This document shows, piece after piece, positions 6,971 to 59,572 of a DNA stretch of 64,000 nucleotides; position 1 is the first letter of the stretch; each line of letters begins with the position of its first letter. Under the pieces are notes generated by a model. The model was not told the origin of the DNA. It worked only from the letters and a program-made list of their open reading frames with translations, and searched no databases. Location: assembly GCF_058153355.1 (NCBI RefSeq), contig NZ_CM177019.1. The stretch is one strand, 5' to 3'. The position numbers were made by a program, and so were the translations under genes.

Positions 6971-8404
6971 AAGGGGTAAGCTGAAATCGTTTATGGATTA
7001 CATCGACATATGCCTGGCAGAGAATGTCCGGAATGACGAGGTTATCTTTGCGGAGATTAAGGCAATGGTATACGGGCCGACGTTCCATGCCGCGTTACTA
7101 CATTCAGCCCGGACGTAAAATGCGCCCGTCAAAAAGAACGGTTCGCTTCGAAACTCAGCCAGGATACCACCTCTCCGCCACACCCGAGAAGAAGTTGATA
7201 TGGTGGTTGCCGGACAACAGCGCTCCTGGATTGACTGCTGCATCACTCAACCACGCTGAATATCAAAGGAGAGCGTTACCGGTTAAAAGAGAAACGTAAA
7301 GCTGTGGTGATGACCCAAAACGCAACGCCTGTCAGTGAGGATGAAATGGTGAAAAGCGGACAGCATCAGTAACGGAAGTATCTTAGCGGGTACGAAAATG
7401 GCAGGATCGTGACATTGACAGAATATCTCCTGATCATCCTGAATGACTGCAGTTGCTGTAGAAAAGTAAGCTGTCTCCACCCACGGCACCACTTAACAGG
7501 CATTCCGTAACTTCCCCCAGACTTACTATGACGCATTATCGGTGCACTGAAAACGGGAGAGTGCGCTTAAAACCGCAGACCGCATGCGGGTGTTACTGCA
7601 TGACAGTCTGGCCGTATTGTGAGATGTCGGCAGGAACCGATGTCCGCGCAGGGGGGAACTTCCTGCAGTACCTGACGCTTCAAATGGTATTAACCGTAGG
7701 GTGTTGTTGGTTCCGGATCGCGGAAATGGGAGCACAGGTCTGCTACGGGGTGTACCTCTGACAGTATATCCGGCTCGCTCATCTGACAGCCTCTCTCCCG
7801 GAAAAGACCAAAAATGAGATCGTCTCCTCAACAGCAGAGAAGAGGTCTTGACAGACAGGCTACATTGCATACGATTTATGAAGAAAAAGACAGCAAATAT
7901 GGAGGTTATAGCGGAGAATACCCTACGAAATTCCTATGAAAAACGATTGAAAAAAATATCAAATTCGATTCGTTTTTATATGCTTTTTGGGAGCGTGGCG
8001 ATGACGAACTGTTGCATGTGCAGAGGAGAATGCACCCGGAAGCACCAGAATCATCCAGAAAGGCAGAACGATTACGCATCAAACCAGGAGACAGCAATAT
8101 CAAGGTAATATACTGATTTAAAATGAATTTACAGCAATACGTAAAAACATTTTTTACTTAAAGGAGACAGATGCGCTGAAGAGAGTGCAGGTATTTTTAT
8201 ATAAAAATGAGAAGTTTACGGGATGTATATCCGGCACACTATGACCGGAGAATATCAGTCAAGCTTAAAAAGACAATAAATACAGTGAGTTAAATACACA
8301 GAGAAAACGTAGTATCAGAGGGTACATCTGTAAGCGTCTTATCAGGACCGTCTGGCAAATTCCCGATGCTTTGGACAAAGTATCCACCACTAAATTAATA
8401 GTGG

Positions 8405-8833
8405 GTGATAAAAATGTCAGATATACAAAAAAATGCCTCTCCGGGAAGGCCTAAAGGGTGCCTGAATTATCCTCCTGAATTCAAACAACGACTCATAGAA
8501 GCATCATTCCAGCCAGGTGTTTCAATTTCCAGACTGGCCCTGGACAATGGTATTAATGCCAATCTGTTGTTCAAATGGCGTCAGAAATGGCGGCAGGGGA
8601 AGATAAAATTGCCATCATCAGAATCAGGCAGAGAATCTCAGTTAATTCCTGTCACTATTGATGCCCAACTCCCAACTGCTCCGGCTAATGAGCCACTGAC
8701 CGCAAGACCGTCAGTAACACCGGAAATACACAGCATCTCCTGTGAGATTACGTTCAGAAACGGCACCCTTCGGTTGAACGGGGCAGTGAATGAAAATCTG
8801 CTGTCCTTGCTTATACAGGAGCTGAGACGGTGA
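8405..8833 (+). CDS. IS66-family accessory protein TnpA (orfA)
   Basis: First ORF of the IS66 trio; start may be the ATG at 8414 rather than the GTG at 8405. Confidence 0.8.
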   Translation: MIKMSDIQKNASPGRPKGCLNYPPEFKQRLIEASFQPGVSISRLALDNGINANLLFKWRQKWRQGKIKLPSSESGRESQLIPVTIDAQLPTAPANEPLTARPSVTPEIHSISCEITFRNGTLRLNGAVNENLLSLLIQELRR

Positions 8834-9177
8834 TATCTCTCCCTGCAGGTTCGCGTATCTGGCTGGTTGCAGGTATCACCGATATGCGAAATGGCTTTAA
8901 CGGCCTGGCCTCAAAAGTTCAGAACGTCCTGAAGGATGACCCGTTCTCCGGGCATCTGTTCATCTTCCGCGGACGCCGGGGTGACCAGATAAAAGTGTTG
9001 TGGGCTGACAGTGACGGACTGTGCCTCTTCACCAGACGCCTGGAGCGGGGCCGCTTCGTCTGGCCGGTCACCCGTGACGGCAAGGTGCACCTTACTCCGG
9101 CCCAGTTATCCATGCTTCTTGAGGGCATCGACTGGAAACACCCGAAACGAACGGAACGCGCTGGCATCCGCATATAA
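8830..9177 (+). CDS. IS66-family accessory protein TnpB (orfB)
   Basis: 115-aa product; GTG start overlaps the orfA stop (GTGA). Confidence 0.85.
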   Translation: MISLPAGSRIWLVAGITDMRNGFNGLASKVQNVLKDDPFSGHLFIFRGRRGDQIKVLWADSDGLCLFTRRLERGRFVWPVTRDGKVHLTPAQLSMLLEGIDWKHPKRTERAGIRI

Positions 9178-9196
9178 CCCGTTGTAAAGTGAGGAT

Positions 9197-10768
9197 ATGG
9201 ACACCTCACTTGCTCATGAGAATGCCCGCCTGCGGGCACTGTTGCAGACGCAACAGGACACCATCCGCCAGATGGCGAAATACAACCGCCTGCTCTCACA
9301 GCGGGTGGCGGCTTATGCTTCCGAAATCAACCGGCTGAAGGCGCTGGTTGCAAAACTGCAGCGCATGCAGTTCGGTAAAAGCTCAGAAAAACTTCGTGCA
9401 AAAACCGAACGGCAGATACAGGAAGCACAGGAGCGAATCAGCGCTCTTCAGGAAGAAATGGCGGAAACGCTGGGTGAGCAATATGACCCGGTACTGCCAT
9501 CTCCCCTGCGCCAGTCTTCAGCCCGTAAACCGTTACCTGCCTCACTTCCCCGTGAAACCCGGGTCATCCGTCCGGAAGAGGAATGCTGCCCGGCCTGTGG
9601 TGGCGAACTCAGTTCTCTGGGATGTGATGTGTCAGAGCAACTGGAGCTTATCAGCAGCGCCTTTAAGGTTATCGAAACACAACGTCCGAAACTGGCCTGT
9701 TGCCGGTGCGACCATATCGTGCAGGCTCCGGTGCCTTCAAAACCCATTGCACGCAGTTATGCCGGAGCGGGGCTTCTGGCCCATGTTGTCGCTGGAAAAT
9801 ATGCAGACCATCTGCCGTTATACCGCCAGTCAGAAATATACCGTCGTCAGGGCGTGGAGCTGAGCCGTGCCACACTGGGGCGCTGGACAGGTGCTGTTGC
9901 TGAACTGCTGGAACCGCTGTATGACATCCTGCGCCAGTATGTGCTGATGCCCGGTAAAGTCCATGCCGATGATATCCCCGTTCCGGTCCAGGAGCCGGGC
10001 AGCGGTAAAACAAGGACTGCCCGGCTGTGGGTCTACGTTCGTGATGACCGTAACGCCGGTTCGGAAATGCCTCCGGCGGTCTGGTTCGCGTACAGCCCGG
10101 ACCGGAAAGGTATCCATCCACAGAATCATCTGGCCGGTTACAGCGGAGTGCTTCAGGCCGATGCTTACGGTGGTTACCGGGCGTTGTACGAATCCGGCAG
10201 AATAACGGAAGCCGCATGTATGGCTCATGCCCGGAGAAAAATCCACGATGTGCATGCAAGAGTGCCCACCGACATCACCACGGAAGCCCTGCAGCGTATC
10301 GGTGAACTGTATGCCATCGAGGCAGAGGTCCGGGGCTGTTCAGCAGAACAGCGTCTGGCGGCAAGAAAAGCCAGAGCCGCGCCACTGATGCAGTCACTGT
10401 ATGACTGGATACAGCAACAGATGAAAACACTGTCGCGTCACTCGGACACGGCAAAAGCGTTCGCATACCTGCTGAAACAGTGGGATGCACTGAACGTGTA
10501 CTGCAGTAATGGCTGGGTGGAAATCGACAACAACATCGCAGAGAACGCCTTACGGGGAGTGGCCGTAGGCCGGAAAAACTGGCTCTTCGCGGGTTCTGAC
10601 AGCGGTGGTGAACATGCTGCGGTGTTGTACTCGCTGATCGGCACATGCCGTCTGAACAATGTGGAGCCAGAAAAGTGGCTGCGTTACGTCATTGAACATA
10701 TCCAGGACTGGCCGGCAAACCGGGTACGCGATCTGTTGCCCTGGAAAGTTGATCTGAGCTCTCAGTAA
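9197..10768 (+). CDS. IS66-family transposase TnpC
   Basis: 523-aa product with N-terminal coiled coil, a CxxC zinc-finger region and a DDE core; a second copy of its 3' two-thirds recurs at 53803..54843. Confidence 0.9.
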
Positions 10769-10967
10769 ATATCAATACGGTTCTGGCGAGCCGCTTACGT
10801 ACATCTTACAACAGAGACTGAATTTCCGGTTTTTCATAACCGGCGCATTCCGGAAAGTGCAGGCGGCCCGGAGGTTTTCTGACGCCACTACCTGGTAGAT
10901 TGTTCTGTACATCATGTACGGAGGTTTTTGTTTGCTTTTTTAAAATCTGCAAATGTGAGAAAAGCAG

Positions 10968-12131
10968 GTGAGGTGTATTGTGGGAAAGGAACTGGATGAT
11001 ATCTGCACCAGCTGTCCGTATATCGATGCTGTAAAACGGCACAAACAACAGCTCGGTGCCATAGAGGAATATACACAGTGGTTAAAAAAAGAACCACGGG
11101 CATCTTATTTTTTTCTGTTCCAGCTGTATACCCGCATTCACAATACATTTTTCTCCCAAAAGCAACAACTCCCGTTCACTCCCGGTGGCACTCACTGCCC
11201 GGAACCTGATGTCACCCTTCGGGACTTAACGCTTTCCCCTGGCTACCACAGTGATTATGCCCCTCAACCCATTCCGGAGATGGACAGTTCTGCTGTTGTT
11301 CCCCCAACTAATGAAAACACCTCGCCTCCGGAAGATACTCCCGACAACACTCCGGCCGGAGGCAATACCGGACAAGCGGAAAAGACCAGAAACGCAGGAC
11401 TCACACCCATTCCTGAAAAACGTTCAGGAATGCCCCCGGAACATCTGCGGTTTGCCACGGGGTTTCCATCGCAACCGAAGATTGCCGGTCCCAGAGAAAA
11501 GCCGATGCGCACCGTGCATCCGGATAAAATCTACCGTGAAATTATATGGTTCTGCTCCAGTTACCTGCTGAAATCCGGACCAGAGGCTACGAGGACGATT
11601 ATCAACTCAGTATTCTCTGAATGGGCCAGCATAAACAATGATTACCCCTCCCCCTTTTCGTGGGTGGACAGCAGGGACAGTGAACAGTGTGACTGGTTAT
11701 GGAACGCCATGCAGGTCCGGTGTGTGGGAACCCCGCTGAATCCCCTTACCCCGGAGCAGAAATACTGGTTTGCCTGCGCCACGTTTGATAACTGGGAGGG
11801 CTGGAATGAGCAACAGGTACAGTTTTTACTGGAAAGTAATCCCAGACGGAACAGAGCGAAGTTTACGCAGGTCTCCTTCCAGGCCCCCAGGATTCAGCAT
11901 AAAGCGATTCTTCTTGATGAGCTGAAAAGTGCCCGGGAGCAACAAAAAAGGCGTGATGAACGTGCTGATGGTTCCGTCCCTCTGAAACTGTCCGGAAAAA
12001 TCCACAAACAGCTTGAAAGTATTGCCCGAAGTCGTGGTGTCCTCCCAAAAAAACTGCTGAATGAAATGATTGAGCAGGCGTACCATGATTTGGTGGCAAC
12101 CAGGCAGAACTGCCAAATCGATTCCAGATAA
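10968..12131 (+). CDS. hypothetical protein (island backbone)
   Basis: 387-aa ORF with no recognisable motif; the true start may be further downstream. Confidence 0.4.
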   Translation: MRCIVGKELDDICTSCPYIDAVKRHKQQLGAIEEYTQWLKKEPRASYFFLFQLYTRIHNTFFSQKQQLPFTPGGTHCPEPDVTLRDLTLSPGYHSDYAPQPIPEMDSSAVVPPTNENTSPPEDTPDNTPAGGNTGQAEKTRNAGLTPIPEKRSGMPPEHLRFATGFPSQPKIAGPREKPMRTVHPDKIYREIIWFCSSYLLKSGPEATRTIINSVFSEWASINNDYPSPFSWVDSRDSEQCDWLWNAMQVRCVGTPLNPLTPEQKYWFACATFDNWEGWNEQQVQFLLESNPRRNRAKFTQVSFQAPRIQHKAILLDELKSAREQQKRRDERADGSVPLKLSGKIHKQLESIARSRGVLPKKLLNEMIEQAYHDLVATRQNCQIDSR

Positions 12132-23808: not shown

Positions 23809-26012
23809 AAAATGAGAATAACCAGTTCCCTGAAGGCGACGTAGCCCGGTACAAGAGTAACCCACGTTAGCGCTTGGCGACGGCGGAACAAAGCTGATTC
23901 GCGACGTAAGAAAGTGGCAGGCTCATATGACGGACCTCTGTAATGCGGTATCCAACCCGCGAATATCAGCGTGATTCACCGTCGGATTTACTGCTACGTC
24001 GCCCTCAGGGAATTAAACCTAAAAAGAAAATCGTCAAAATTAGAGATTCCGGTTTGACACGGAAAGTCATATCAGCGTTAATGGAGAATCATATTGATGC
24101 TTATTTATTGGTGAGAACTACGTTCCATGGCAGGAGTTCATCAATACGGTTGGAAGGTTATTCCGGCAGTACGCTCAGGATATGGCGCAGATACGCTTCC
24201 GGATCAATGTCGTTCAGAAGGCAAGTGCCGATAAGCCCATACAACAGTGCACTGCGCTCGCCGCCGAAGAACATAAAGTTTTTATTTCCGAGACAGATGG
24301 CACAAAGGGCTTTTTCCGCGGCATTATGTCTGCCTCCGCCTGACCGTCAACACTGTAATAACAGAGTGCGCCCCACTGATTCAGTACACAGCTGAACCAT
24401 TCTCCCAGTCTGGATTTTTGGATAGCGTGGCATTTTTCTCCACCATGCATGCAGTGAGTCCAGTAACAGTTTGCTCTTCTTCTGCCTGACCACAAGATGT
24501 GCTGGACTGGTAAACGATGGGGATACCTGCTTACGCGAGAGCAATAAGTGGCTGGCCACAATTCTCGGTACAAAACTCTGCTGAATAGCAGCGATTTTCC
24601 CAGCGTGGTGCGTCGTTTGCATTTTACTGGTTCTAAGTTAACAATTATCTGTTCACTAATGACTACTCTAAAAACTTGTATCAGGACTATCACTTATTTA
24701 AGTGATATTGGTTGTCTGGAGATTCAGGGGGCCAGTCTATAAACTTTTTACAAAAGGATGAATGCAGAAGGTTACTCTAATGGCCAGAGTGATGACAATG
24801 ATGGTCAGACGTTGACCTGCAGAAACTGCATTTTAATTGGTCTATAAAGTCTGCAAGAGGAATCAGGGTCAGATCAGTGAGTCTTATCGCGGCCCGAAGC
24901 TATGACTGAAAGAAGGCTGGATACAGAATTGCAACAATTTGGCAATGTCAGAACACAGAAGCTTTGCAAGCAGGTGAAAGGTTATGTCTAGCAAAAGGAG
25001 TATATCAGAATACATCTACTGATGTACAAAACACAACAATAGCTTCATGATATATAAATACGTGATGACGAGTGGTACTCCGCATGGTTATTTAACTTCT
25101 CAGCACCACTAATGATCCTGAGCAACTTCGTATTTGGGCCATTGCCATGGAGTAGAAAGCTGTGTCTGAGAATGCAGAATTTGAGAAAAGAATTCGCTTT
25201 CTTGGAGAGCTTCTGAAAATGGCACGCTAACAACGTTTTGTTAAAAAATGTGAATCACTTGCCGGGGCTGCATTTTCTATTCGAGGAGAATGTTGACGTA
25301 GATATTACAGAAATCTCAGCGCATCAGGATAAACTGCTACCTTAGGTCAACCACCAAAAGAAAATACAATACGTCCAGTTTGTATGCCTTTAATAACACA
25401 TCTTTTAAATGTTGAAGAATTATCCCGCCTGCTGAAGAACGTTGCTCTGAGTGTGATAAACCTTTTTATTCTTGATGATGTCAGCGAGAAGATGGAATAT
25501 ATCCCCGACTGGGTCGTGGTTACCCGGTTAAACATCTGGTGGCGCTAATAAATCTGGCAAGTCACATTCTGTTGAATGCTGTGACAGTGCCTTACCGAGA
25601 GAGCGAAATTGTGGTGTTCTAGTGCATAGTCGCCACCATTCCGGATAATTCTATTGCGTTGTTTTACAAGTTCTTTTACAGCGCAGATCTGTCGCTGACG
25701 TTGAATCAATAGCCTGGATTTCAGAACACAATGCCCGTTTGCTGGTTGGTCCGGCAGTAGCATTAATTCATTATCTGAATGAAATGTGTCAATCCACAGA
25801 AACCGCTGTCAATGACACATTTTGTCGGACGTTAACACGAGAAAGTCTGGCTATTCCGTAATGCCATCTTATTTCGTAATGGATTGAGAATGCTGGATTT
25901 TTAATTATATTACGCGCAGTATTAATCGCGTAAATGTTTTGCGGTCAGCAACGGTGGGGGATCCATTGTTCTGTTCAATGAATACCATCATACATTTGAA
26001 TCAGGAGTCGGT

Positions 26013-39899: not shown

Positions 39900-47888
<7,989 letters not shown>

Positions 47889-48200
47889 GCTTACCTTCCC
47901 TGAACGAGCTAACATAAATGCGCCCTTTCTAGCACAGCGAAAAAATATAAATCCTGATAGCAATATGATTGAAAATTAATAACTTTTCGTTAAGCAGTTT
48001 TGGGTGTGAGTTGCAAGAGGGGAGACTACTGAATAACTCAAGTTTTATAATCGAGGGGAAAATGGTGATGGTGTCCATAGCAAAACGCCCTCAACCATAA
48101 AGATCGAGGGCGCTTAAGATGTCAAAAACCCGCTATCCGTTAAAAAGCAATGCTCAACTAAGGTCAGTGACATTGCGCTAAAAAGCGAATTTTTAGAATT

Positions 48201-48216
48201 TGGCTCCTCTGACTGG
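48201..48216 (-). other. 16-nt remnant of the tRNA-Asn 3' end (asnT position): direct repeat marking an island junction
   Basis: TGGCTCCTCTGACTGG is identical to the 3' end of the three intact tRNA-Asn genes, then diverges; it lies 312 bp upstream of yeeJ, where asnT sits in K-12. Confidence 0.8.
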
Positions 48217-48367: not shown

Positions 48368-50122
48368 CTACGGTGCTGGTATTATAGTCTCTGCTCCAAA
48401 CCAATTTCCAAGTGTTGTCAGTGCCGCAGGTGACAAAGCTTGGGTGAAAAGGATCGCAAGGCGCTTTTGGGGTCTGGAACAAGCGACGTAAAACAAATTT
48501 CGGTTTCGTTCAAATGAGTCTTGCTTATCGACTGGAATCGTTTGGGCTCCAGCGAATTCCAACATTTCTCCGAAGTTATACTGGTTCCACCCACGCCCAA
48601 CAACAACCAGGACATTCTCAAATTCAGCACCTTTCACACCATGTTTAGTTTCGAATGGAGAATATCCATCAAGATAACGGCGAAGTGATCTGACCTCCGA
48701 ATAGGGAATATTTTTCAGCTTTTCAAGTTCTTTTAATCTTCGGGGCATTTCAACATCAGCCGTTCTGTCAAAATGGAGTAACTCCTGCTCAAATTATTCA
48801 ACCTTATCTGGAAGTCTTGGCTTCCGTTGAGCACGGATGAACTCAATTACGTCGCCAATTGTACCAGTTTCGCGGAGAGCAAGAAGTTGCGTCATTACAT
48901 TGTGCCAACTCACCTTATCTGAATGTCTACGCAACAGTGGTGTAATACCGCCAAGCGCATTAAACATCTCTCCATACTTACGAGCGGTAAAGGCATCACA
49001 GGCGGGTTCCAGTTTGTCTACAAAAAAGGCTATATGTTCATGTTCCTTTTTCGTGAAGGATTCATTGTATTTAAACGCTGCCACTATATTTGAATAGCCC
49101 TGCTGATTGGCTAAAAGTCGATGGGTCAACATGAGAATTTTGGTGTGATTGGGAGAAAAGTCCCAACCATCCTGCTCCAACGTTGTTTTAACTCGTTCCA
49201 GAGTAGCCTGGCCTTCACATAATGGTAAATCACCACTCCAGTGCACGCCTTTTTGACGAACTCCTTGCCAATTGTTTGTATGGAAAACGCGTACTAAACC
49301 TGTAGCTTCGGGATCTTTAACACACTGCGGTAGCTCAGGTCTCATACGATTAAGGGCATCAACAATTATCTTGTCCGAACGAAAATTGGCTTCTTTACCT
49401 ATTTCAACCACGTCCTGATGTTCCAGCTTTCCACATCCACCACCATAGATTTTTTGCCAATGGTCGCCGAAAAAACCAAATAAAGGTGCTCTAGCTTGTC
49501 CAAGAAAATGCCGTTTAATTGCCTCAATCCAGTTTTTATCAGTGTCCTGGTACTCATCGACCAGAATGATTGGAAAGCGTTCTGCAATCACTCTACGGAA
49601 TTTTTCGTGCTCCATGAGTGAGACAGTTAAAGAAAGAACATCGTCATGATGAAGAGTTATACGATGGTCGCGAATAGAGCGATGTCCAAGATTATACTCA
49701 ACACTACGATTCCCAAGGCTTCCACCAACTTCTTCGAGCTTTTCTGTCCATGTTGGCATTGTCTCAATCAGTTCTCTCAACGGTTTTTGAAAGCTGCTTA
49801 TTAACGACCAACAGAACGCATGATTGGTATCACAAAAAACGATGGGGCTTCGATCTGTTCGCGCGACGATTTCATCCTTCGCCACGTTAGTAAAGGTGAT
49901 GCAGGCAATTTGCTGGCTACGTTTTTCAAATAAATCCTTATTTCGCTCAATCAAGAATCGAAGTGCCTTAATAAGGGAATACGTTTTACCCGCACCAGCG
50001 CCAGCTTCCAGCCGGAAGCTTCGTCCTTCACTGAGGCAAGCATACATAGATTCCAAAGCTCGCTGGCTAGCAGCTTCGGCGGGCGAATGGATCTCAGACA
50101 TCAGCGCTGGCTCCTTCTTCAA
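48368..50122 (-). pseudogene. UvrD/PcrA-like SF1 helicase (GajB-like), interrupted by one in-frame TAA
   Basis: Motif I AGAGAGKT and motif II ILVDEYQDTD in the 442-aa ORF; after the TAA at 48794..48796 the same frame continues into the C-terminal helicase domain (YVACSRPQKRLAIL). Confidence 0.7.
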
Positions 50123-52166
50123 TACTAGTTGTGGCTTCTACAACTTGCGCCAATACTGGATCTTGTGTCATAAGCTCATTGCTGCCAGCTAACCAGCGGA
50201 TTCCATCGACTATGTATTTGGGGGCGTTCCATTCTGTCTCTGTAATCGCGTATTTCAATGCAAATTCTGATTTTTTCCACTCAGACGCTTTATCACGGGC
50301 TTCTATTTCCAGTTCCTGAGAATTTCTCCCTACCAGCCCGAATAAAGCCGAATTTGCAAGGATAAATGCATCTTCGAATGTGCGTCCGCAGGGGCCATCT
50401 GTCACTTCTGCACATTGATAGGCAATACGATTTCCATTACGAGCTTTATCATCGTCACTCCTGGCAATCAAACCAGCTAATGTGAAAGGGGTATCTTCAG
50501 AGAACCATGCTTTCAAACAAGCATTACTGGAATATGTACCAAGATGAACAGCACATGCCTGACCTCCTGCTCTTTGGACTGCGTCCAGATCTGTTATGAT
50601 CAGACTCTGAAGCTCAAGAAACGCTAATAACTCGAAGAACAAATGAGCGTAAGCACCGCCGACTTCCATCACCGTTGCGTACTGGCTCGACAGCTTCGGT
50701 CTCTCTGGTTCGGCTGATTCTAGTTTTTTGATGATGACGGGAAGCAATAATCGCTCGCTTAACCCCTCGACGAGAATCGCTTTATCTGCGAAAAACAGAT
50801 CACAACGTGTCAACGTCATGTATTGATGAAGGAATTTTTTATCTTCAATTAGAATATGATTCAGCCCTTTACGCAGATCTTTAATTTTGGTTTTTCGGAC
50901 ACCTTCCTGAGTCCCCTGTGCTGGAGCCCCCAGAAAATAGCGAATACTCTCGAAACCAGCCGCATTGGCAATGTGAGACGAGTGTGTAGACACGACAAAT
51001 TGTACAGGCCAGGGTCTCCTGTCCTCAGTGCCATCCACCAGTTGTTGTGCAATTTTGGCAAGTTGACGAATAAAAACCTCCTGCATTTGTGGATGCAGAT
51101 GGGCTTCTGGTTCTTCAATGAATATCAGGTGTACACCCGGCTCAGTAACTTCAGCACAAAATGCTTTATAGAAACCAGCTAATTGCAAGAGAATAAATAT
51201 CAGATTACGTGTACCAAGACCGTTATATGACTCCGGTAATGCGATTCCGCTATAACCTGAATAGCGAACTTTCGTGAAGTTTGATAGCAACTTGCTAACA
51301 TCGAGCAATGTTTCAGTATGTAACTCCTGTCCTCCCAATCCTGGGTATCCAAAAGTTTCTAGAGCCGGAATCAGACTGTTGAGCTGGTTTCCGAAGTTTG
51401 TGTCAATTTGAGTCTGAATGTCCTGAACTGCACCTTTCAATGCATCAGCAATTTGTTTATCAGCAGCTCCCGCAGATGCCGAAGAGGCTGTTGCGAAAAG
51501 ATTTTCAACCGTTTTAGCCAGTACATCGGATTCTCGGGACGTCACATCATCAAGTCCTCGCTGAGCGTTGATAAAGCCCGATTTGACCAGACCGCGCAAT
51601 GCACTAGGTGGTAACTCGCGACGATTATCAGGATCGTTGGGATCTTCAGCCCATATTTTCACACAGAAATTATTAGGGATACGTTCTCGCAATATACGGA
51701 GGAAAGCGAGGCGGTCTTCTCTAGAAAGTGGCATTTCAGTCTGACTTTCGAGAAATTGTGTCAGATGGCCATCTTTCAATTCGTATCGGACTACTACCTG
51801 CGCTTCAGAACACGCGGGATCCAAATCGATAACAAAGGGACTCAATGGACCTAATTGAGGTTGTGCAGGGTCGTACTGGAATTTCAGTCGAAGTTCAATG
51901 GCGGGAATAAGTTCTCGAACGAGATGATCTTCCATGCCTTCCTTAAGTGCTTCCAGAACATCACAAAAACGGTCGTAGCAGGAACTGGAAAAGTCTTCAA
52001 GTTGGAAAGTAGCACTACCATCTGCTAAGAATCTGCGTATTATTTCTGAGAGTGATGTTTTTCCGCTGTTGTTTCGTCCAACAATGACGGTCGTCTGTTC
52101 CTCCAATACAAGCTCTGCATCAGCTAAAAGACGGAAGTTTTTAATTTCGACCTGATGAATGTGCAT
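50094..52166 (-). CDS. OLD-family ATP-dependent endonuclease (ABC-type ATPase + Toprim; GajA-like)
   Basis: Walker A GRNNSGKT, Walker B/D-loop LIFIEEPEAHLHP, Toprim motifs ILVEGLSE and ITDLD; its end overlaps the helicase start by 29 bp. Confidence 0.8.
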   Translation of the reverse strand: MHIHQVEIKNFRLLADAELVLEEQTTVIVGRNNSGKTSLSEIIRRFLADGSATFQLEDFSSSCYDRFCDVLEALKEGMEDHLVRELIPAIELRLKFQYDPAQPQLGPLSPFVIDLDPACSEAQVVVRYELKDGHLTQFLESQTEMPLSREDRLAFLRILRERIPNNFCVKIWAEDPNDPDNRRELPPSALRGLVKSGFINAQRGLDDVTSRESDVLAKTVENLFATASSASAGAADKQIADALKGAVQDIQTQIDTNFGNQLNSLIPALETFGYPGLGGQELHTETLLDVSKLLSNFTKVRYSGYSGIALPESYNGLGTRNLIFILLQLAGFYKAFCAEVTEPGVHLIFIEEPEAHLHPQMQEVFIRQLAKIAQQLVDGTEDRRPWPVQFVVSTHSSHIANAAGFESIRYFLGAPAQGTQEGVRKTKIKDLRKGLNHILIEDKKFLHQYMTLTRCDLFFADKAILVEGLSERLLLPVIIKKLESAEPERPKLSSQYATVMEVGGAYAHLFFELLAFLELQSLIITDLDAVQRAGGQACAVHLGTYSSNACLKAWFSEDTPFTLAGLIARSDDDKARNGNRIAYQCAEVTDGPCGRTFEDAFILANSALFGLVGRNSQELEIEARDKASEWKKSEFALKYAITETEWNAPKYIVDGIRWLAGSNELMTQDPVLAQVVEATTSIEEGASADV

Positions 52167-52303: not shown

Positions 52304-53802
52304 TCACTCGGTCAAAGAGGCCTCACGAACATCATCCGGTTGAGGTTGGCACTCTTTCCATCGTCGAATAAGCGTTGCTACACAGGGATTACCCGCCAGT
52401 TGATTCATTCTGACCCAGTCAACATCCACTAATCCAGCCAGAAGTTCAGGATTTAGTTCCCCTTGTAATGGGTGCCACTGGCGAATACTGGGCTGGCGCT
52501 GAATTTGAGGTTGAAGGGGAGCCAAACTCCCGACGATAACGTAATTTTGTTCTGGATCATGCCAGAGTCGTGTAATGCCAGGTATGTTTTTCAACCAGTT
52601 TCGAGGATCACCTAAAGGTAAATCAAAAACACGAGAGAGTAATTTATTCCATGACGCTATTAATGACGAACTGGCTTTCTTTGCCAATTTTTTCTCACCT
52701 GCCAGGAGTGCATTTTTTCTTTCTGGCCATTTGGAAAAAATATAACTTTTTAAAATATCGTAGGTAACATTAAGTTCATTATTGTAATAATACTCACGCA
52801 AAGCACAATTCCACAACTCGCACAGCAAGTCTAGTTCACGCATGAGTGTATTTTTATTGGTATCTGATAATTCACCTTCCTCATTAAGTTGCGCTATATA
52901 AAAAGACAGTATCTTTGTATCTGGTAAGAGCCAGTGGTTTAGTGAGAACTGCTGACTTTGAGTATCAAGAACAGTCATTAATGCATCTAAATTCTCAGGG
53001 ATCATATTAGGGGTGTCGTATTTCGGATCCTGAAGAAGAATGGATATTTCTTCCATTCTATGAATAATTATTGTCAATCTCTGAGCAAATCTGGTTAATT
53101 TATCTTCACTGCTGCCAAAACCTTGCGCTATTGATTCAGGCCGATAAGTATAAGGCCATTTTTTATTTAAGAGAGTAAGAAGAGCCTCGACAGAGGTATC
53201 AAACAGTTTCAGCCTTTCATCGCAGGCTTTAACTAAATCCGGGCAAGAAGGATTAAAAGGTAAAATTACTGGGCGGTCTTGTTCAGCGGTGAATAAATAT
53301 CCTTCGGTGATAACCAATAGGTCATGAGTCAGTAAGTCTTTCTGTTCTGTCAGGCTTGTACTGATTCTTGTTTCTTTGCAAAGTAAAAGATGCTTCAACG
53401 CAAGTTCTTTGTACGCAACTTCGGTATTACGCGCCAATGCATCAAGACAGGTCTTTTTCTCAAGATCTTGAATGGCATAGTCGTAATAGCAAGAATCTAT
53501 CGCAGGGATGAGTCGGGTAGTCCCATCGGGAGTATCCTGCTCAATCAATAAATTATCAACAACAGAATCACCACTAAGATCAAACGGATTAACGTTGATA
53601 TGCTGGCACGCAATTTTAGTTCTTAGATTCTGAGTTAACGGATAGCGGTCATCAATTATACCACGGATCTGATCTAACAAAACAAGTATGCATATAGAGC
53701 TGTCTTTTTCCAATTTTTCAAATGATGAGGGTTCTGAATCCGGTAATAATTCCAGCTGTACATCAGGATACTTTTTGTTCAACACCTTTTGTATCTGCGC
53801 AC
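52304..53802 (-). pseudogene. large hypothetical protein gene, 5'-truncated at the junction with the IS66 remnant
   Basis: About 500 codons of unique sequence; the N-terminal 66 codons of the track ORF are antisense IS66 sequence, and no native start codon is retained. Confidence 0.5.
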
Positions 53803-54843
53803 TTCCCCGTGAAACCCGGGTCATCCAACCGGAAGAAGAATGCTGCCCGGCCTGTGGTGGCGGGCTCAGTCCTCTGGGATGTGATGTGTCAGAACAACTG
53901 GAGCTTATCAGCAGCGCCTTTAAGGTTATCGAAACACAACGTCCGAAACTGGCCTGTTGCCGGTGCGACCATATCGTGCAGGCTCCGGTGCCTTCAAAAC
54001 CCATTGCACGCAGTTATGCCGGAGCGGGGCTTCTGGCCCATGTTGTCGCTGGAAAATATGCAGACCATCTGCCGTTATACCGCCAGTCAGAAATATACCG
54101 TCGTCAGGGCGTGGAGCTGAGCCGTGCCACACTGGGGCGCTGGACAGGTGCTGTTGCTGAACTGCTGGAACCGCTGTATGACATCCTGCGCCAGTATGTG
54201 CTGATGCCCGGTAAAGTCCATGCCGATGATATCCCCGTTCCGGTCCAGGAGCCGGGCAGCGGTAAAACAAGGACTGCCCGGCTGTGGGTCTACGTTCGTG
54301 ATGACCGTAACGCCGGTTCGGAAATGCCTCCGGCGGTCTGGTTCGCGTACAGCCCGGACCGGAAAGGTATCCATCCACAGAATCATCTGGCCGGTTACAG
54401 CGGAGTGCTTCAGGCCGATGCTTACGGTGGTTACCGGGCGTTGTACGAATCCGGCAGAATAACGGAAGCCGCATGTATGGCTCATGCCCGGAGAAAAATC
54501 CACGATGTGCATGCAAGAGTGCCCACCGACATCACCACGGAAGCCCTGCAGCGTATCGGTGAACTGTATGCCATCGAGGCAGAGGTCCGGGGCTGTTCAG
54601 CAGAACAGCGTCTGGCGGCAAGAAAAGCCAGAGCCGCGCCACTGATGCAGTCACTGTATGACTGGATACAGCAACAGATGAAAACACTGTCGCGTCACTC
54701 GGACACGGCAAAAGCGTTCGCATACCTGCTGAAACAGTGGGATGCACTGAACGTGTACTGCAGTAATGGCTGGGTGGAAATCGACAACAACATCGCAGAG
54801 AACGCCTTACGGGGAGTGGCCGTAGGCCGGAAAAACTGGCTCT

Positions 54844-56667
54844 GTGTGTCACGAAGGAGTACTTATGGCAACAATGTGAAAATTGCAGCATAAGTTATCC
54901 ATGCTCTGAGGTGGGTGGAGGTGGGCCCTCCGGTCAGGGTTTACAGGAGCACTGACCAAACGACCCGGTGCTGCTTCATTCTAAGGAATGAGGTGGTGAG
55001 CGACTCGGGAAAAGGCAGAGATCTACTGTCACGTGGGGTTCGGGAAGCTGAACGAAAGTAAACTGTCCGATGAAGCATCGAAATCTTAGATGATGTCAAA
55101 ATGGGGCCGTACAGCCGTCCCCTGATAAGCGCAGAAGACACCTGCTTACTGACTGCGCGGCATCCGGTGTGAAGGCAGCAGGATCCCGGGCCAGACCATC
55201 TCAGGGAACGTGAGAACCTGTTTCCGGCACGTATCGGGAAACAGGGGCGGACCCATTCGTAGTAGTGATGAAAGATCTGTAATGGGTCTGGAGCGAAGGG
55301 ATGGGGATCACATTCATTGCAGAAGACACAACCCAAAAGGGGATGACGTAACTGATGCAACGAAAATCATTTGAAATACCAAAAGCACTGGTCTGGGCAT
55401 CATATCTGGATGTGCGTCGCAACAAGGGAGCCCCCGGATGCGACGGGCAGACTTTGAAAATGTTCGACCAGCAACGTGATGGCAATCTATACAAGATCTG
55501 GAACCGGCTATGTTCGGGAACATGGTTTCCGCCACCAGTGCTGGAAAAACGGATCCCGAAGTCGAATGGCAAGGAACGCATTCTGGGGATCCCAACAGTA
55601 TCCGATCGAATTGCTCAGGGAGCGATAAAACTTTTCATGGAAGAAAAGCTTGACCCGATTTTCCATGCTGATTCATATGGTTACCGACCAGGCAAATCAG
55701 CTCATGACGCTCTGAAACAATGTGCCATCCGGTGCTGGCGTTATAGCTGGATACTGGAAGTGGACATCAGTGCGTTTTTCGACCATGTGAGACATGATCT
55801 GGTGCTCAAAGCTCTGGAACACCACGGGATGCCTAAATGGGTCATCCTGTACTGTCGACGCTGGATGGAAGCGCCAATGCAGAGTTGTGAAAATGGAGAA
55901 TTAATAACCCGAACACGAGGCACTCCGCAGGGCGGGGTCATTAGTCCACTACTTGCTAACTTGTTCCTTCACTATGCATTTGATTTGTGGATGGAAAGAG
56001 AATATCGGGGGGTACCGTTTGAGAGGTACGCTGACGATATTGTAGTACATTGTTCACGAATGAGTGATGCAACAAGGCTGAAGAACAGGTTATCGGAGCG
56101 CTTCTCGGAAGTCGGGCTGGTCCTGAATGCAGGGAAAACGAATATCGCCTACATTGACACGTTTAAAAGGAGAAACGTCGCAACGAGTTTCACCTTTCTC
56201 GGATATGACTTCAAAGTGCGTACGCTGAAGAATTTCAAAGGCGAACTGTACCGAAAATGCATGCCGGGTGCGTCAAATGCAGCAATGCGCAAAATAACAG
56301 AAACAATCAAGAAGTGGCGTATACATCGCTCAACAGCTGAGAGTTTGCTGGATTTTGCGAGGCGCTACAATGCGATAGTGAGAGGCTGGATCGAGTACTA
56401 CGGAAAGTTCTGGTCCAGAAATTTCAACTATCGACTGTGGAGTGCAATGCAGTCACGTCTGCTCAAGTGGATGCAGTCTAAATACAGACTTTCGAACCGG
56501 AAGGCTCAGCGAAAGCTGACGCTGGTAAGGAAGGAGTATCCGAAGCTATTTGTTCACTGGTATTTACTACGTGCATCAAATGAGTGATCAAGAGCCGTAT
56601 GACGCGAGAGTGTCACGTACGGTTCCGTGAGCAGCCGGGGAGTGAAATTCTCTCCGGCTGACTCGAC
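54844..56667 (+). mobile_element. bacterial group II intron (1824 bp) in sense orientation within IS66 tnpC
   Basis: Starts GTGTG immediately after the exon 1 homology and ends ...AC before exon 2; domain V-like GAGCCGTATG...CACGTACGGTTC at 56592..56625; contains the RT/maturase ORF. Confidence 0.75.
55355..56587 (+). CDS. group II intron reverse transcriptase/maturase (no endonuclease domain evident)
   Basis: RT motifs including GTPQGGVISPLLANLFL and YADDIVVH, plus a maturase X domain (RGWIEYYG); 410 aa. Confidence 0.85.
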   Translation: MQRKSFEIPKALVWASYLDVRRNKGAPGCDGQTLKMFDQQRDGNLYKIWNRLCSGTWFPPPVLEKRIPKSNGKERILGIPTVSDRIAQGAIKLFMEEKLDPIFHADSYGYRPGKSAHDALKQCAIRCWRYSWILEVDISAFFDHVRHDLVLKALEHHGMPKWVILYCRRWMEAPMQSCENGELITRTRGTPQGGVISPLLANLFLHYAFDLWMEREYRGVPFERYADDIVVHCSRMSDATRLKNRLSERFSEVGLVLNAGKTNIAYIDTFKRRNVATSFTFLGYDFKVRTLKNFKGELYRKCMPGASNAAMRKITETIKKWRIHRSTAESLLDFARRYNAIVRGWIEYYGKFWSRNFNYRLWSAMQSRLLKWMQSKYRLSNRKAQRKLTLVRKEYPKLFVHWYLLRASNE

Positions 56668-56852
56668 TCGCAGGTTCCGACAGCGGTGGCGAACATGCGG
56701 CGGTGTTGTACTCGCTGATCGGCACATGCCGTCTGAACAATGTGGGGCCAGAAAAATGGCTGCGTTACGTCATTGAGCATATCCAGGACTGGCCGGCAAA
56801 CCGGGTACGCGATCTGTTGCCCTGGAAAGTTGATCTGAGCTCTCAGTAAATA

Positions 56853-58796
56853 TCAATACGGTTCTGGCGAGCCGCTTACGTTTAATCGGGAAATCTCATA
56901 TTTTCGGTTCATCATTAATGGCAGAAGGAAGCGTTGATGCTGTTGACGAGAAATTTCACCAGCACGGAGCAGTTTTTCTAGGTTGCGTAACTGGAAACCC
57001 GCATGCGCCATATCATCATTGTTCTCTGTATTGGCCTGAAAAGCGGAAAAGTAATAATGCCGTGATTCCAGCAAATATAAACAGGTCAGATCCATATTTT
57101 TGCCAGATTCAGGCAGGCTGAAATCCAGATTCACACCATTCGTCGCAGAGGCGGTCTGAGTCAGCACAATGACAATACGCCGGGAGGCAAATGCGGCCTG
57201 ATAAGCATCACTAAAGCCCTTTTTCTTCTGACATTCTGCGGTTAACAGACAAATCAGCGCAGGCTCATTATGTATGCTCACTGGGATAAACACATCAGCA
57301 AAATTTTTTAGTAGAGGATCATCAGATAAAGGTTGTTCCATTTTTAACCATGCGAGGTATTCTCTACTTTGTGTTGCTATTGTAGTGGTAAGCCATTTTC
57401 TTAAATAGGCTATGGAATTCACGAAAGCAAGATGCCCCCGGTGTTGAGGTCTTTTTCCCGCAAGATCCAATACATTAAGCAATTTTAGCAGTATATTTTT
57501 TCGATATTCTGATTCGAAATCTGATGAGGGGTCATCGCCATTCTGGAAAAAATCGGGGGCTAGCGAAGCGAGCAGATCAACACAATGCGGGTTATTCTTT
57601 ATGCTATTGAAATCTTGAATCTCAGCATTCAGTTGTGTGTTTCTGATATTTTCTTTGCTGTTATTGATCTCTTCAATAGCTAAATACTGCAACTGGAAAT
57701 CATCAGCCGTCTGGACATAAGGTATCGGTTCTTTAAACCACTCGACAGGTCGTTTTTCAAAAGTTGTTCCCAGAAAACTTTGTGTAACAGCAGGGTTGCG
57801 TGCTTCTGCAATATAACGAAGAGCTGAATTAATCCACCGGACATCGAAGTGATTACAGGCTCTTTCAATATATGACGTAGCCGACAGTGCAAAGACAAGA
57901 TTACGACTGGCGAGAGAAAGCAGCAGACCTTCTGCCGTCGTGGGCAGAAAGGCACGTTTGATCTGTATCCGTAACGGATCGATATCCGTATCTGAGACAT
58001 TCTGTTTCAGCAACCAATTGGTCAAGCCAAAAATACTGGCATGAGTATTTGGCAAAATATTACTTTTCCTTAATTCCCGTAGTTCCGGCAGGTCAGTACG
58101 CGGTAACAAAAATCGGGACATATTGGGCAGGGTTGAGCCGTAGTATGAAGGCCTGTAATCATTAACGGGGTCGAACAGAAGTCGGGTTAACTTTTTAATG
58201 TATTCATACGCTTCATCTTCACTTGCAGTCAGGTCGGTCAACATTAGGCTAAACTGTCGAATGAATTTTTCCATCAAGCGTAAAAAATCACTGATGTCGA
58301 TAGTCTGATCGCTATCCTGAAGCGGAGAGTCTGGCCTGATAATTTCGTATCCATGTTCCGCTTTCCGCATAATAAGCCGTTCACTGGTCACCAGTTGATC
58401 GGAACGGAATAAATAATGCTCACCAAAGGGTTTATTATCCAGATATTGCTGAAGAGGAATAACCAGCGATCTGGCATGTGTTAAATCAGCATGTTTTTCT
58501 GTTAATGCACTATCCAGATCATTAATAAATTTTTCTAGACGTTCACGGATCATAGGTGCAGGTTCCATTTCAACATACTGCATACGTTGTAGTAATCTGC
58601 GTCCCCCGTCGAGCAACTGACCCAGACACTCAGGTGGTTCCTGAACCCATTGCGCCTGTGCCAGATACTCTTGTAATACCTCAGACTGGTAATCAAATTC
58701 ATCGATGAAAATGATGTAATTACGCAGCTCTTTGCTGGACATTTTTACTTTGCGACGCCCATCGTAAAACGATGAAACCATCTTTTGAGTCGTCAT
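56853..58796 (-). CDS. large hypothetical protein; C-terminal 8 codons and stop supplied by the IS66 terminus
   Basis: 647-aa ORF; N-terminal IIFIDEFD resembles a Walker B / DExx motif; the last codons (SGSPEPY) are encoded within the IS66 right inverted repeat. Confidence 0.5.
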   Translation of the reverse strand: MTTQKMVSSFYDGRRKVKMSSKELRNYIIFIDEFDYQSEVLQEYLAQAQWVQEPPECLGQLLDGGRRLLQRMQYVEMEPAPMIRERLEKFINDLDSALTEKHADLTHARSLVIPLQQYLDNKPFGEHYLFRSDQLVTSERLIMRKAEHGYEIIRPDSPLQDSDQTIDISDFLRLMEKFIRQFSLMLTDLTASEDEAYEYIKKLTRLLFDPVNDYRPSYYGSTLPNMSRFLLPRTDLPELRELRKSNILPNTHASIFGLTNWLLKQNVSDTDIDPLRIQIKRAFLPTTAEGLLLSLASRNLVFALSATSYIERACNHFDVRWINSALRYIAEARNPAVTQSFLGTTFEKRPVEWFKEPIPYVQTADDFQLQYLAIEEINNSKENIRNTQLNAEIQDFNSIKNNPHCVDLLASLAPDFFQNGDDPSSDFESEYRKNILLKLLNVLDLAGKRPQHRGHLAFVNSIAYLRKWLTTTIATQSREYLAWLKMEQPLSDDPLLKNFADVFIPVSIHNEPALICLLTAECQKKKGFSDAYQAAFASRRIVIVLTQTASATNGVNLDFSLPESGKNMDLTCLYLLESRHYYFSAFQANTENNDDMAHAGFQLRNLEKLLRAGEISRQQHQRFLLPLMMNRKYEISRLNVSGSPEPY

Positions 58797-58798
58797 GA

Positions 58799-59572
58799 TC
58801 AGCAGGTGTTGCTTTTCGTCACGCCAGGCAATGGCGGGCAGAATGCGCCTGACCCAGACGTGGCGACGGAAATCTGCAACTCGTTGCCTGGCTTGGCTGC
58901 CTGCGTGAGTTCATGTTCTTCGCCATATTTTTCTTTTTGTTTCTTGGCTTCTTTTTCCAGCAATTTGATATTCTGAATCAGAGTTATCTCCACCGCTGCG
59001 CATGATTTGATTAATGACTCTTTCTCACTGGCGATGGCCGTCTGAAAACGCGTCGGATATCCTTTCAGCGATTTGTTAATATGCAGTATGTTTTTGCAAT
59101 TTCTACGCAATTTGTCGGCGATATCCTGAATGGCAAACAAATTTCTGTCTTCCAGGATATTGATGGAGTCAAATGGATCGGGAAGTGAGTCTGCGGAAAT
59201 ATTATTCTCATGAGGCAAGGGGGTGGCCTCGATGGCAGAAACGATCTGTTCATCTTGTGCATAGAGCACGCTGACGGTGAATGGTTCCCCGTTACTGTCT
59301 TTATGCGCTGCCGTTTTCTCATAAATGTCGTGCAAAATATTCCAGCGATGGGTAACCAGAATGGCTTGAGAGCCTGATTTTTTTATCGTCTCCAGCGCCG
59401 GGAGAGCGTTATCGGCATAGCCAGAGCGGTAGAGTGAGCTGGTTTTTCCGCTACCCGTAGGCCCCTGAAGCTGACAAAATCCTGCGATACGACGGGATGT
59501 TTTGGATTTTTTTGCCTGAGAAAGGGTGTATTCAATAACGGCATTGTAGGAACGTATTAAAGGGGCACTCAC
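58799..59572 (-). CDS. P-loop NTPase (helicase motif I-like GPTGSGKT)
   Basis: 257-aa ORF with Walker A GPTGSGKT; stop lies 2 nt before the ATG of the downstream 647-aa ORF. Confidence 0.5.
   Translation of the reverse strand: MSAPLIRSYNAVIEYTLSQAKKSKTSRRIAGFCQLQGPTGSGKTSSLYRSGYADNALPALETIKKSGSQAILVTHRWNILHDIYEKTAAHKDSNGEPFTVSVLYAQDEQIVSAIEATPLPHENNISADSLPDPFDSINILEDRNLFAIQDIADKLRRNCKNILHINKSLKGYPTRFQTAIASEKESLIKSCAAVEITLIQNIKLLEKEAKKQKEKYGEEHELTQAAKPGNELQISVATSGSGAFCPPLPGVTKSNTC

Follow-up and report, generated by a model that had tools for sequence, protein, structure and literature searches.

An intact, probably functional IS66-family element of chimeric make-up and its truncated, intron-split paralogue as direct repeats in Escherichia coli

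Two copies of an IS66-family insertion sequence (IS) are present in the 64,000-nucleotide stretch of DNA analyzed here (the window), which raises the question of whether the complete copy can still move, where its parts come from, and what the pair means for the chromosome between the copies. We are highly confident that window positions 8330-10798 represent an intact IS66-family element, probably still functional, which is a chimera and which forms, with a dead second copy, direct repeats that would allow a large deletion.

The complete element (copy 1) is 2,469 bp long and is bounded by imperfect inverted repeats, the left one (IRL, GTAAGCGTCTTATCAGGACCGTCTGGC) at 8330-8356 on the plus strand and the right one (IRR, reverse complement GTAAGCGGCTCGCCAGAACCGTATTGA) at 10772-10798 on the minus strand. 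Both begin with the same seven nucleotides, GTAAGCG, and they match at about 17 of 27 positions; imperfect terminal repeats starting with this motif are reportedly characteristic of the IS66 family. IRR is nearly identical to the right end of ISCro1-type elements, and IRL is also present in copies of the element from E. albertii and from the E. coli draft genome GCA_047897835.1. The octamer GTACATCT directly abuts the element on both sides (8322-8329 and 10799-10806), as is also evident from comparison with the empty site, and occurs nowhere else in the window; the probability that two given 8-mers match is 4^-8, or about 1.5e-5. A target-site duplication of 8 bp is the value reported for IS66 (PMC6778807), and duplications of this length, GAATAAGG and CACCGGAC, also surround two independent copies of the element. 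Ends, duplication, protein domains and empty site all agree with the preliminary description of this locus as an intact IS66-family element with an 8-bp duplication at both ends.

Three consecutive genes are located on the plus strand of the element. The first, tnpA (8414-8833), encodes an HTH accessory protein (Pfam HTH_Tnp_1, E = 6.8e-11) of 139 aa if read from the ATG at 8414, or of 142 aa from the GTG at 8405; the exact protein is found in NCBI as EON3572379.1. The second, tnpB (8830-9177, 115 aa), whose start overlaps the tnpA stop codon (GTGA), encodes the IS66 Orf2 accessory protein, which is unrelated to the RNA-guided TnpB of IS200/IS605 elements (TnpB_IS66, PF05717; E = 7.1e-40, 135 bits against a cut-off of 26.6, profile positions 2-100 of 101). 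Beginning 19 nt past the tnpB stop, tnpC (9197-10768) encodes a DDE transposase of 523 aa, the length of annotated ISCro1-family transposases, with LZ_Tnp_IS66 (PF13007), zf-IS66 (PF13005), DDE_Tnp_IS66 (PF03050; profile positions 1-283 of 284, E = 4.4e-104) and DDE_Tnp_IS66_C (PF13817) domains, all above the curated cut-offs. Thus, all three reading frames are indeed intact, as had been claimed: they are full length, match the whole profiles of the expected Pfam families, and equal their annotated homologues in length. A promoter consensus scan of positions 8200-11100 gave no candidate above the shuffled background and nothing convincing upstream of tnpA. By analogy with other members of the family, TnpC, with its leucine-zipper and zinc-finger DNA-binding regions, would act on both GTAAGCG-type repeats, assisted by TnpA and TnpB, and repair of staggered cuts made 8 bp apart at insertion would have generated the GTACATCT duplication.

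Copy 1 inserted into non-coding DNA of a CP4-44-like island adjoining cobU, with a gene of unknown function about 170 bp downstream. Many E. coli genomes contain the reconstructed empty site, which has a single GTACATCT, at 100% identity over 1,200 bp, and 962 records match it at no less than 99%. Neither the insertion nor a full-length copy of the element is present in any of 5,426 complete E. coli genomes; in the genome collections searched, both window copies are private to this genome. The insertion of copy 1 is thus recent and strain-specific, and it could be used as a lineage marker.

The element does not have a uniform relationship to other IS66-family members. Over positions 502-2469 it shares about 97% identity with copies annotated by NCBI as 'IS66-like element ISCro1 family' (ISCro1, an IS66-family member first named in Citrobacter rodentium, is common in E. 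coli), and over positions 1-501 only about 68% with the left ends found in most other IS66-family elements of E. coli. TnpA shares 38% amino-acid identity with ISCro1-type TnpA. The switch in identity is located exactly at the tnpA stop and tnpB start, and its sharpness points to a module swap. The element is thus a modular chimera, in which an ISCro1-like segment from tnpB to the right end is joined to the left repeat and tnpA of a different, rarer lineage; because of this distinct left-end/tnpA module, it cannot be regarded as simply one of the common E. coli IS66 members. The 90% identity cluster of TnpA comprises 43 members only, and the left repeat, sought as a 30-mer and then as a 20-mer, was found in none of 100,044 species-representative genomes (one per species), a result that demonstrates only the rarity of this left end.

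Given such a composition, the element might be an intact-looking but inactive fossil, whose reading frames have stayed open simply for lack of time since the insertion and whose heterologous left end and TnpA, for example, are incompatible with ISCro1-type TnpB and TnpC. The limited agreement between the terminal repeats, the origin of the left module in a different lineage and the rarity of that lineage would all fit this explanation, but the distribution of the element argues against it. The copy in GCA_047897835.1 is 2,469 bp long, has the same ends and genes, is 99.8% identical to copy 1 and is flanked by CACCGGAC; it differs at five sites, all of them in tnpB and without effect on the TnpB protein. 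The copy on the E. albertii plasmid pESA134_1 is 95.9% identical and flanked by GAATAAGG. The chimeric unit thus occupies three sites that are unrelated to each other and has a perfect 8-bp duplication of its own at each, which indicates that the chimera moved as a unit after it had formed, and this exact 2,469-bp form has transposed at least three times. We consider an inactive fossil unlikely; the element is probably still functional, for which its intact reading frames, the strain-specific insertion and the three independent sites are indirect evidence. More tentatively, it is possible that it represents a still-active natural chimera, in which a rare, short left-end/TnpA module has replaced the usual one on an ISCro1-type TnpB-TnpC-right-end unit. 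If so, TnpB and TnpC of the IS66 family would be able to work with a heterologous TnpA and left repeat.

The second copy consists of two pieces on the plus strand, 53800-54843 (element positions 1214-2257, corresponding to tnpC codons ~116-463) and 56668-56879 (positions 2258-2469), the latter including an authentic IRR that abuts LF82-type island sequence. The paralogue noted previously is thus real, although its homology to copy 1 starts at 53800 and not at 53803, and it is truncated and situated in the asnT island as stated: only element positions 1214-2469 are left, and a tRNA-Asn att remnant at 48197-48216 borders the island, with asnT itself presumably located beyond the window. On its left, copy 2 ends in a deletion junction rather than in an IS end, and comparison with E. 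coli LF82 places this junction within a 9/10 microhomology, CTGC(G/C)TCACT. At the insertion point of copy 2, LF82 reads ...TTCGCCGTTTAATCGGG... without interruption, and GTTTAATC at 56880-56887 is most readily interpreted as the surviving right-hand target-site copy of the original insertion. An ancestral full copy inserted into a gene for a 1,300-aa protein in the asnT island, a later deletion at the microhomology took its left 1,213 bp, its left-hand target-site copy and 2,179 bp of adjacent island DNA, and it was also invaded by a group II intron. For the two large genes destroyed by copy 2, Pfam and PADLOC searches identified no family, the sole signal being at the N-terminus of the 1,300-aa protein, where DEAD/AAA_11 matched below the threshold. 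Copy 2 is a dead remnant.

The intron that splits the copy 2 tnpC is 1,824 bp long (GTGTG...GAC; 54844-56667, plus strand), with both junctions read directly from the sequence, and had been missed in the preliminary description; the corresponding site of copy 1 (10586|10587) is unoccupied. It contains matches to Rfam RF01999 (D1-D4; 54917-55033, 91.9 bits) and RF00029 (domains V/VI; 56590-56667, 57.1 bits) and a plus-strand reading frame (55355-56587) for a 410-aa reverse transcriptase/maturase (Pfam RVT_1 and GIIM). These ribozyme domains and the RT/maturase, together with ends of the GUGYG (5') and AY (3') type, are the hallmarks of a bacterial group II intron. A literature search on group II introns in association with IS66 returned nothing relevant.

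How the two copies came to differ is relevant both for the history of copy 2 and for its ability to recombine with copy 1. In the pairwise alignment proposed earlier, the first piece is 99.33% and the second 96.7% identical to copy 1, with seven mismatches in each. These differences could represent ordinary mutational decay of an old pseudogene copy, and copy 2, being truncated, intron-split and non-functional, would be free to collect mutations. Yet all 14 differences fall into two short clusters, at element positions 1241-1308 and 2262-2367, around a stretch of 949 bp (positions 1309-2257) that is identical in both copies with zero mismatches, although this same stretch shows about 45 differences to the copies of E. 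coli 536 and E. albertii. In addition, in the left cluster copy 2 exactly matches the IS66 variant of strain VL40, which indicates a recombination patch and not decay by point mutation, and in the right cluster VL40 sides with copy 1, whereas the intron-bearing 536 copy agrees with copy 2 at five of the seven differing sites. Clustered differences that are shared with other variants are indicative of an exchange of patches between IS66 variants, and mutational decay is therefore quite improbable. The several mismatches noted near 53820 do exist (53827, 53828, 53837, 53863, 53864, 53871 and 53894), but they form the patch shared with VL40; the terms 'decayed' and 'diverged' are thus not appropriate for copy 2, which has rather been shaped by a microhomology deletion, splitting by an intron and a recombination patch. 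Ongoing gene conversion among E. coli IS66 copies might account for the patchy identity seen when the two copies are compared with other IS66 variants. Copy 1 is not a simple descendant of present-day copy 2, as its positions 1214-2469 equal those of the GCA_047897835.1 copy and copy 2 differs from both at 14 sites.

With 949 bp of complete identity, the two copies are sufficiently similar for homologous recombination, and the one circumstance that had been named as arguing against it, too much divergence, does not apply. The copies were correctly described as being in the same orientation about 43 kb apart: both are on the plus strand and thus direct repeats, with a distance of 44,257 bp from start to start and 43,001 bp of DNA in between. 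Of the two outcomes proposed for this pair, deletion agrees with direct repeats sharing this identity, and inversion has to be rejected because both copies lie on the same strand. At 24104-24325 there is a third relic of the IS66 family, in inverted orientation, but with an amino-acid identity of 45% its divergence is far too great for recombination and hence for an inversion. In RecA-dependent recombination between copies 1 and 2, a crossover upstream of the intron would remove 44,257 bp and one downstream of it 46,081 bp; either would leave one IS between the non-matching octamers GTACATCT and GTTTAATC, with left flank-GTACATCT-IS-GTTTAATCGGG as the predicted junction. Homologous recombination between direct IS66 copies has been reported to drive a 270-kb deletion that likewise left mismatched 8-bp flanks (PMC6778807). 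The interval of 44-46 kb, flanked by a near-identical direct repeat of 949-1,044 bp, holds part of the CP4-44-like island, cobUST, ldtA, three of the four tRNA-Asn genes, nac, cbl, yeeO, yeeN, amn, shiA, yeeJ and a Gabija locus; it may be collapsed by assemblers and deleted by cells. The predicted deletion is seen in no genome of the collections, where, with both copies private to this genome, it would not be visible. If the deletion is counter-selected, the reason could be loss of three tRNA-Asn genes or of the cbeA/cbtA toxin-antitoxin pair.

It might also be considered that copy 1, with its left end, and copy 2, with its right end, together delimit a composite transposon of 48.5 kb (8330-56879) carrying cobUST, three tRNA-Asn genes, yeeJ and Gabija. 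The repeats at 8330 and 56879 are correctly oriented for this, and copy 1 can provide all three proteins, but a unit of 48 kb would transpose very inefficiently, and a 48.5-kb segment bounded by a single 8-bp duplication is absent from every sequenced relative. The flanking octamers differ (GTACATCT and GTTTAATC), the interval is ordinary core chromosome in the usual E. coli order, and each copy has a separate insertion history, from which we conclude that the segment was not acquired as a whole; a composite transposon is extremely unlikely. Nothing in the element challenges the present understanding of such sequences: it is a routine mobile element, and the practical value of element and remnant lies in annotation and strain biology. 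They also provide a small, clean case of how IS66-family elements swap modules and recombine in patches.

Among known systems, ISCro1 has in common with the window element the lengths of tnpB (115 aa) and tnpC (523 aa), a near-identical right repeat and the 8-bp duplication. By the ISfinder convention, isoforms share about 95% or more nucleotide identity across the whole element. The window element fails as an isoform of ISCro1, since its first 501 positions yield no high-identity alignment, its TnpA is too divergent, and the ISCro1-type copy in strain A34 is 2,703 bp long, encodes a TnpA of 216 aa, and has the left repeat GTAACCGTCTCATTT... and the duplication GATTTAAG, in contrast to 2,469 bp, 139 aa and GTAAGCGTCTTATCAGG... 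in the window. A length of 2,824 bp has been reported for the ISCro1-type element of EC958 (PMC8764528). The closest counterparts are the elements of the E. albertii plasmids pESA134_1 and pESA134_2 (2,469 bp, 95.7-95.9% identity, equal ends and three genes, own 8-bp duplications) and that of GCA_047897835.1, which differ from the window element in insertion site and host; this 2,469-bp form is probably an IS isoform without a formal name. IS66 from Agrobacterium, the prototype of the family, and IS679 from the E. coli plasmid pB171, on which functional work has reportedly been carried out, have the same tnpA-tnpB-tnpC layout, GTAA-type terminal repeats and an 8-bp duplication, but are relatives at the family level only; among E. 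coli copies with an IS679-family annotation, some match a short stretch of copy 2 at about 94%. The counterpart of copy 2 is an IS66 remnant in E. coli 536 and its relatives, which carries the same group II intron at the identical position in tnpC and aligns without gaps to the 3,080-bp block of copy 2 at 97.3%. The introns themselves are 99.0% identical (19 differences in 1,824 bp), whereas the flanking IS pieces are just 94.6% and 96.2% identical, and the 536 remnant has other truncation points and neighbours and is cut by IS100.

The element at window positions 8330-10798 (copy 1; element positions 1-2469) is an ordinary insertion sequence of the IS66 family and was correctly spotted as such in the preliminary description, an identity borne out by its ends, its three genes with their Pfam domains, the flanking duplication and the empty site. 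To that description we make small additions: its chimeric make-up, a group II intron in the second copy, a putative deletion behind that remnant, and the correction that recombination between the copies is expected to yield deletion only and no inversion. GTACATCT occurs twice in the whole 64-kb window, both times at an end of the element: the left junction (8322-8330) reads ...GAGG GTACATCT / GTAAGCGTCTTATCAGG..., the right junction (10798-10806) reads ...GAGCCGCTTAC / GTACATCT TACAAC..., and between them lie 2,469 bp whose termini are imperfect inverted repeats, each starting with GTAAGCG. The interior is occupied by three open reading frames, all on the + strand: tnpA (8414-8833; 139 aa, or 142 aa with a GTG start at 8405; Pfam HTH_Tnp_1), tnpB (8830-9177; 115 aa, its start and the tnpA stop overlapping in GTGA; TnpB_IS66) and tnpC (9197-10768; 523 aa; LZ_Tnp_IS66, zf-IS66, DDE_Tnp_IS66, spanning profile positions 1-283 of 284, and DDE_Tnp_IS66_C). 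All three products score far above the curated Pfam cut-offs and have the same lengths as their annotated homologues; the earlier claim of three intact reading frames is therefore correct, as are the coordinates and the duplication. By analogy with the family, TnpC would serve as the DDE transposase that works on the terminal repeats, assisted by the accessory proteins TnpA and TnpB, and it would cut the target with an 8-bp stagger. Within the left end of the element, directly upstream of the tnpA start, lies a hairpin with a 9-bp stem (CCACCACTAAATTAATAGTGG; 8384-8404), which in the terminator scan gave solely a minus-strand terminator-like match and may act as a binding site or in translational control.

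Copy 1 is a genuine insertion and private to this genome. When the empty site was rebuilt by joining 600 bp on the left (through one GTACATCT) to 600 bp on the right, it was found at 100% identity over all 1,200 bp in many E. coli chromosomes, with matches of at least 99% in 962 records. The full element, on the other hand, is present in none of 5,426 complete E. coli genomes, where the best matches cover positions 502-2469 only, at about 97%. The insertion site is non-coding and lies in a CP4-44-like island adjoining cobU; on one side of it is a fragment of an AAA-ATPase gene, on the other an uncharacterised gene of 383 aa starting about 170 bp downstream.

The second copy, a remnant in the asnT island, was resolved, in a BLAST comparison of the element with the window, into two collinear + strand pieces, 53800-54843 (element positions 1214-2257, 99.33%) and 56668-56879 (positions 2258-2469, 96.7%). 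They are separated by a group II intron of 1,824 bp (54844-56667, + strand), which splits tnpC. Rfam recognizes its D1-D4 region and domains V/VI; it begins with GTGTG, terminates with GAC, follows ...AACTGGCTCT in tnpC and encodes a 410-aa reverse transcriptase/maturase (55355-56587). E. coli 536 carries an intron at the equal tnpC position that is 99.0% identical, whereas identity falls to 94.6-96.2% in the IS pieces on either side of it, which suggests that the intron spread among IS66 variants independently. The corresponding target in copy 1 (10586/10587) is unoccupied, though identical upstream and over 4 nt downstream.

E. coli LF82 carries a corresponding island (99.1% identical) and served as reference for the history of the remnant. 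On the right the remnant finishes in a genuine IS end, which borders on GTTTAATCGGG within a 1,300-aa gene. Its left edge is no IS end: the sequence is LF82-like to ...TATCTGCG and then continues as IS sequence (CACTTCC...), with the join inside a 9/10 microhomology, CTGC(G/C)TCACT. A full copy would thus have entered the 1,300-aa gene. A microhomology deletion would then have stripped the IS of its positions 1-1213 and taken with them the left copy of the duplication and 2,179 bp of the island, so that the 1,300-aa gene lost its 3' part and a neighbouring 818-aa gene its 5' part; the intron would have entered tnpC at some point. The junctions of this copy occur in no complete genome of the searched collection. 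The two wrecked genes (52304-53799 and 56880-59572, - strand) are large and adjacent, and lie beside a Gabija defence locus; in the 5' part that remains, a 5-bp TGGCT duplication near 58890 additionally shifts the reading frame. Their LF82 counterparts (locus L003, 13115-19477), WP_000982354.1 (818 aa) and WP_001275764.1 (1,300 aa), match no Pfam or PADLOC family; the latter shows a Walker-A motif along with a DEAD/AAA_11 signal below threshold, and the two may form an as yet uncharacterised pair of defence genes.

The remnant had been described as diverged and truncated. Truncation is upheld by the deletion junction at its left edge, while divergence through decay is not: in the pairwise alignment the copies are identical over 949 bp (positions 1309-2257), a stretch in which each of them shows about 45 differences from the copies of 536 and E. 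albertii, and they are thus not too divergent to recombine. The 14 differences between them are confined to two clusters, at positions 1241-1308 and 2262-2367 (53827-53894 and 56672-56777 in the remnant). In the left cluster the remnant exactly matches an ISCro1/IS679-like element of strain VL40; in the right cluster the VL40 element agrees with copy 1 and not with the remnant, and the remnant shares 5 of 7 differing sites with the intron-bearing 536 copy. Random decay was therefore rejected as their source, and the clustering and block sharing indicate patches exchanged between IS66 variants by patchwise gene conversion. A third, only distantly related IS66-family transposase fragment (24104-24325, - strand) lies in inverted orientation between the CP4-44-like island and cobU; it corresponds to residues 446-523 of TnpC, with 45% of amino acids identical, and is too divergent for recombination with either copy.

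The two copies are a recombination substrate, for which deletion or inversion had been proposed. Since both lie on the + strand, the predicted outcome of reciprocal homologous recombination is loss of the interval, without inversion. With the crossover in the 1,044-bp block, 44,257 bp would be lost and an intron-bearing IS would stay behind; with the crossover in the 212-bp block, the loss would be 46,081 bp and the remaining IS intact. In both cases the product would have GTACATCT on one side and GTTTAATC on the other. Mismatched flanks of just this type were what identified an IS66-mediated 270-kb deletion in Agrobacterium (PMC6778807). The interval comprises the rest of the CP4-44-like island including cbeA/cbtA, then cobU, cobS, cobT, ldtA, three tRNA-Asn genes, nac, cbl, yeeO, yeeN, amn, shiA, a glycosyltransferase gene and yeeJ, and also the asnT island's left portion, where gajA and gajB lie. 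None of the named core genes is known to be essential in E. coli K-12. The yeeJ-type frame (39900-47963, - strand; 2,687 aa) contains direct repeats at 41162-45176 with a 609-bp period (e.g. 43555-43854 and 44164-44463, 87%), presumably tandem Ig-like domains. The label asnT island is reasonable: at the border with yeeJ lie 20 bp identical to the 3' terminus of tRNA-Asn (AATTTGGCTCCTCTGACTGG; 48197-48216, - strand), the att-type remnant expected of an island integrated at asnT, and other strains have an integrase and asnT on the far side of this position. The window holds only three tRNA-Asn genes (29455, 31864, 33688), and asnT itself is not in these 64 kb. In the Gabija locus (48369-52166, - strand) gajA is full length (50094-52166, - strand; 690 aa), and gajB is cut short by an in-frame stop codon (48794-48796); measured against LF82 it keeps 442 of about 577 aa, and it is a pseudogene unless the stop is a sequencing error.

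Matches to positions 502-2469 of copy 1 are annotated as 'IS66-like element ISCro1 family'. The first 501 bp, comprising the left repeat and tnpA, are matched at 92-96% in no more than about ten plasmids and a single chromosome, with about 68% identity elsewhere; the left repeat is absent among one-genome-per-species representatives of 100,044 species. An ISCro1-type copy of strain A34 is 2,703 bp long compared with 2,469 bp, has the duplication GATTTAAG and the left repeat GTAACCGTCTCATTT..., and encodes a TnpA of 216 aa with 38% identity to that of copy 1. Identity between the two starts precisely at the tnpA stop/tnpB start; the different left part and this switch therefore mark copy 1 as a modular chimera. 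The 2,469-bp form also occurs in E. albertii plasmids (95.7-95.9% identity) and in the E. coli draft genome GCA_047897835.1 (99.8%), so the chimera is a true mobile unit and no accident of this locus. These are independent insertions: the copy on the E. albertii plasmid pESA134_1 is bordered by GAATAAGG, and that in GCA_047897835.1, with five differences, all in tnpB and leaving the protein unchanged, is bordered by CACCGGAC and adjoins a serine-protease autotransporter gene.
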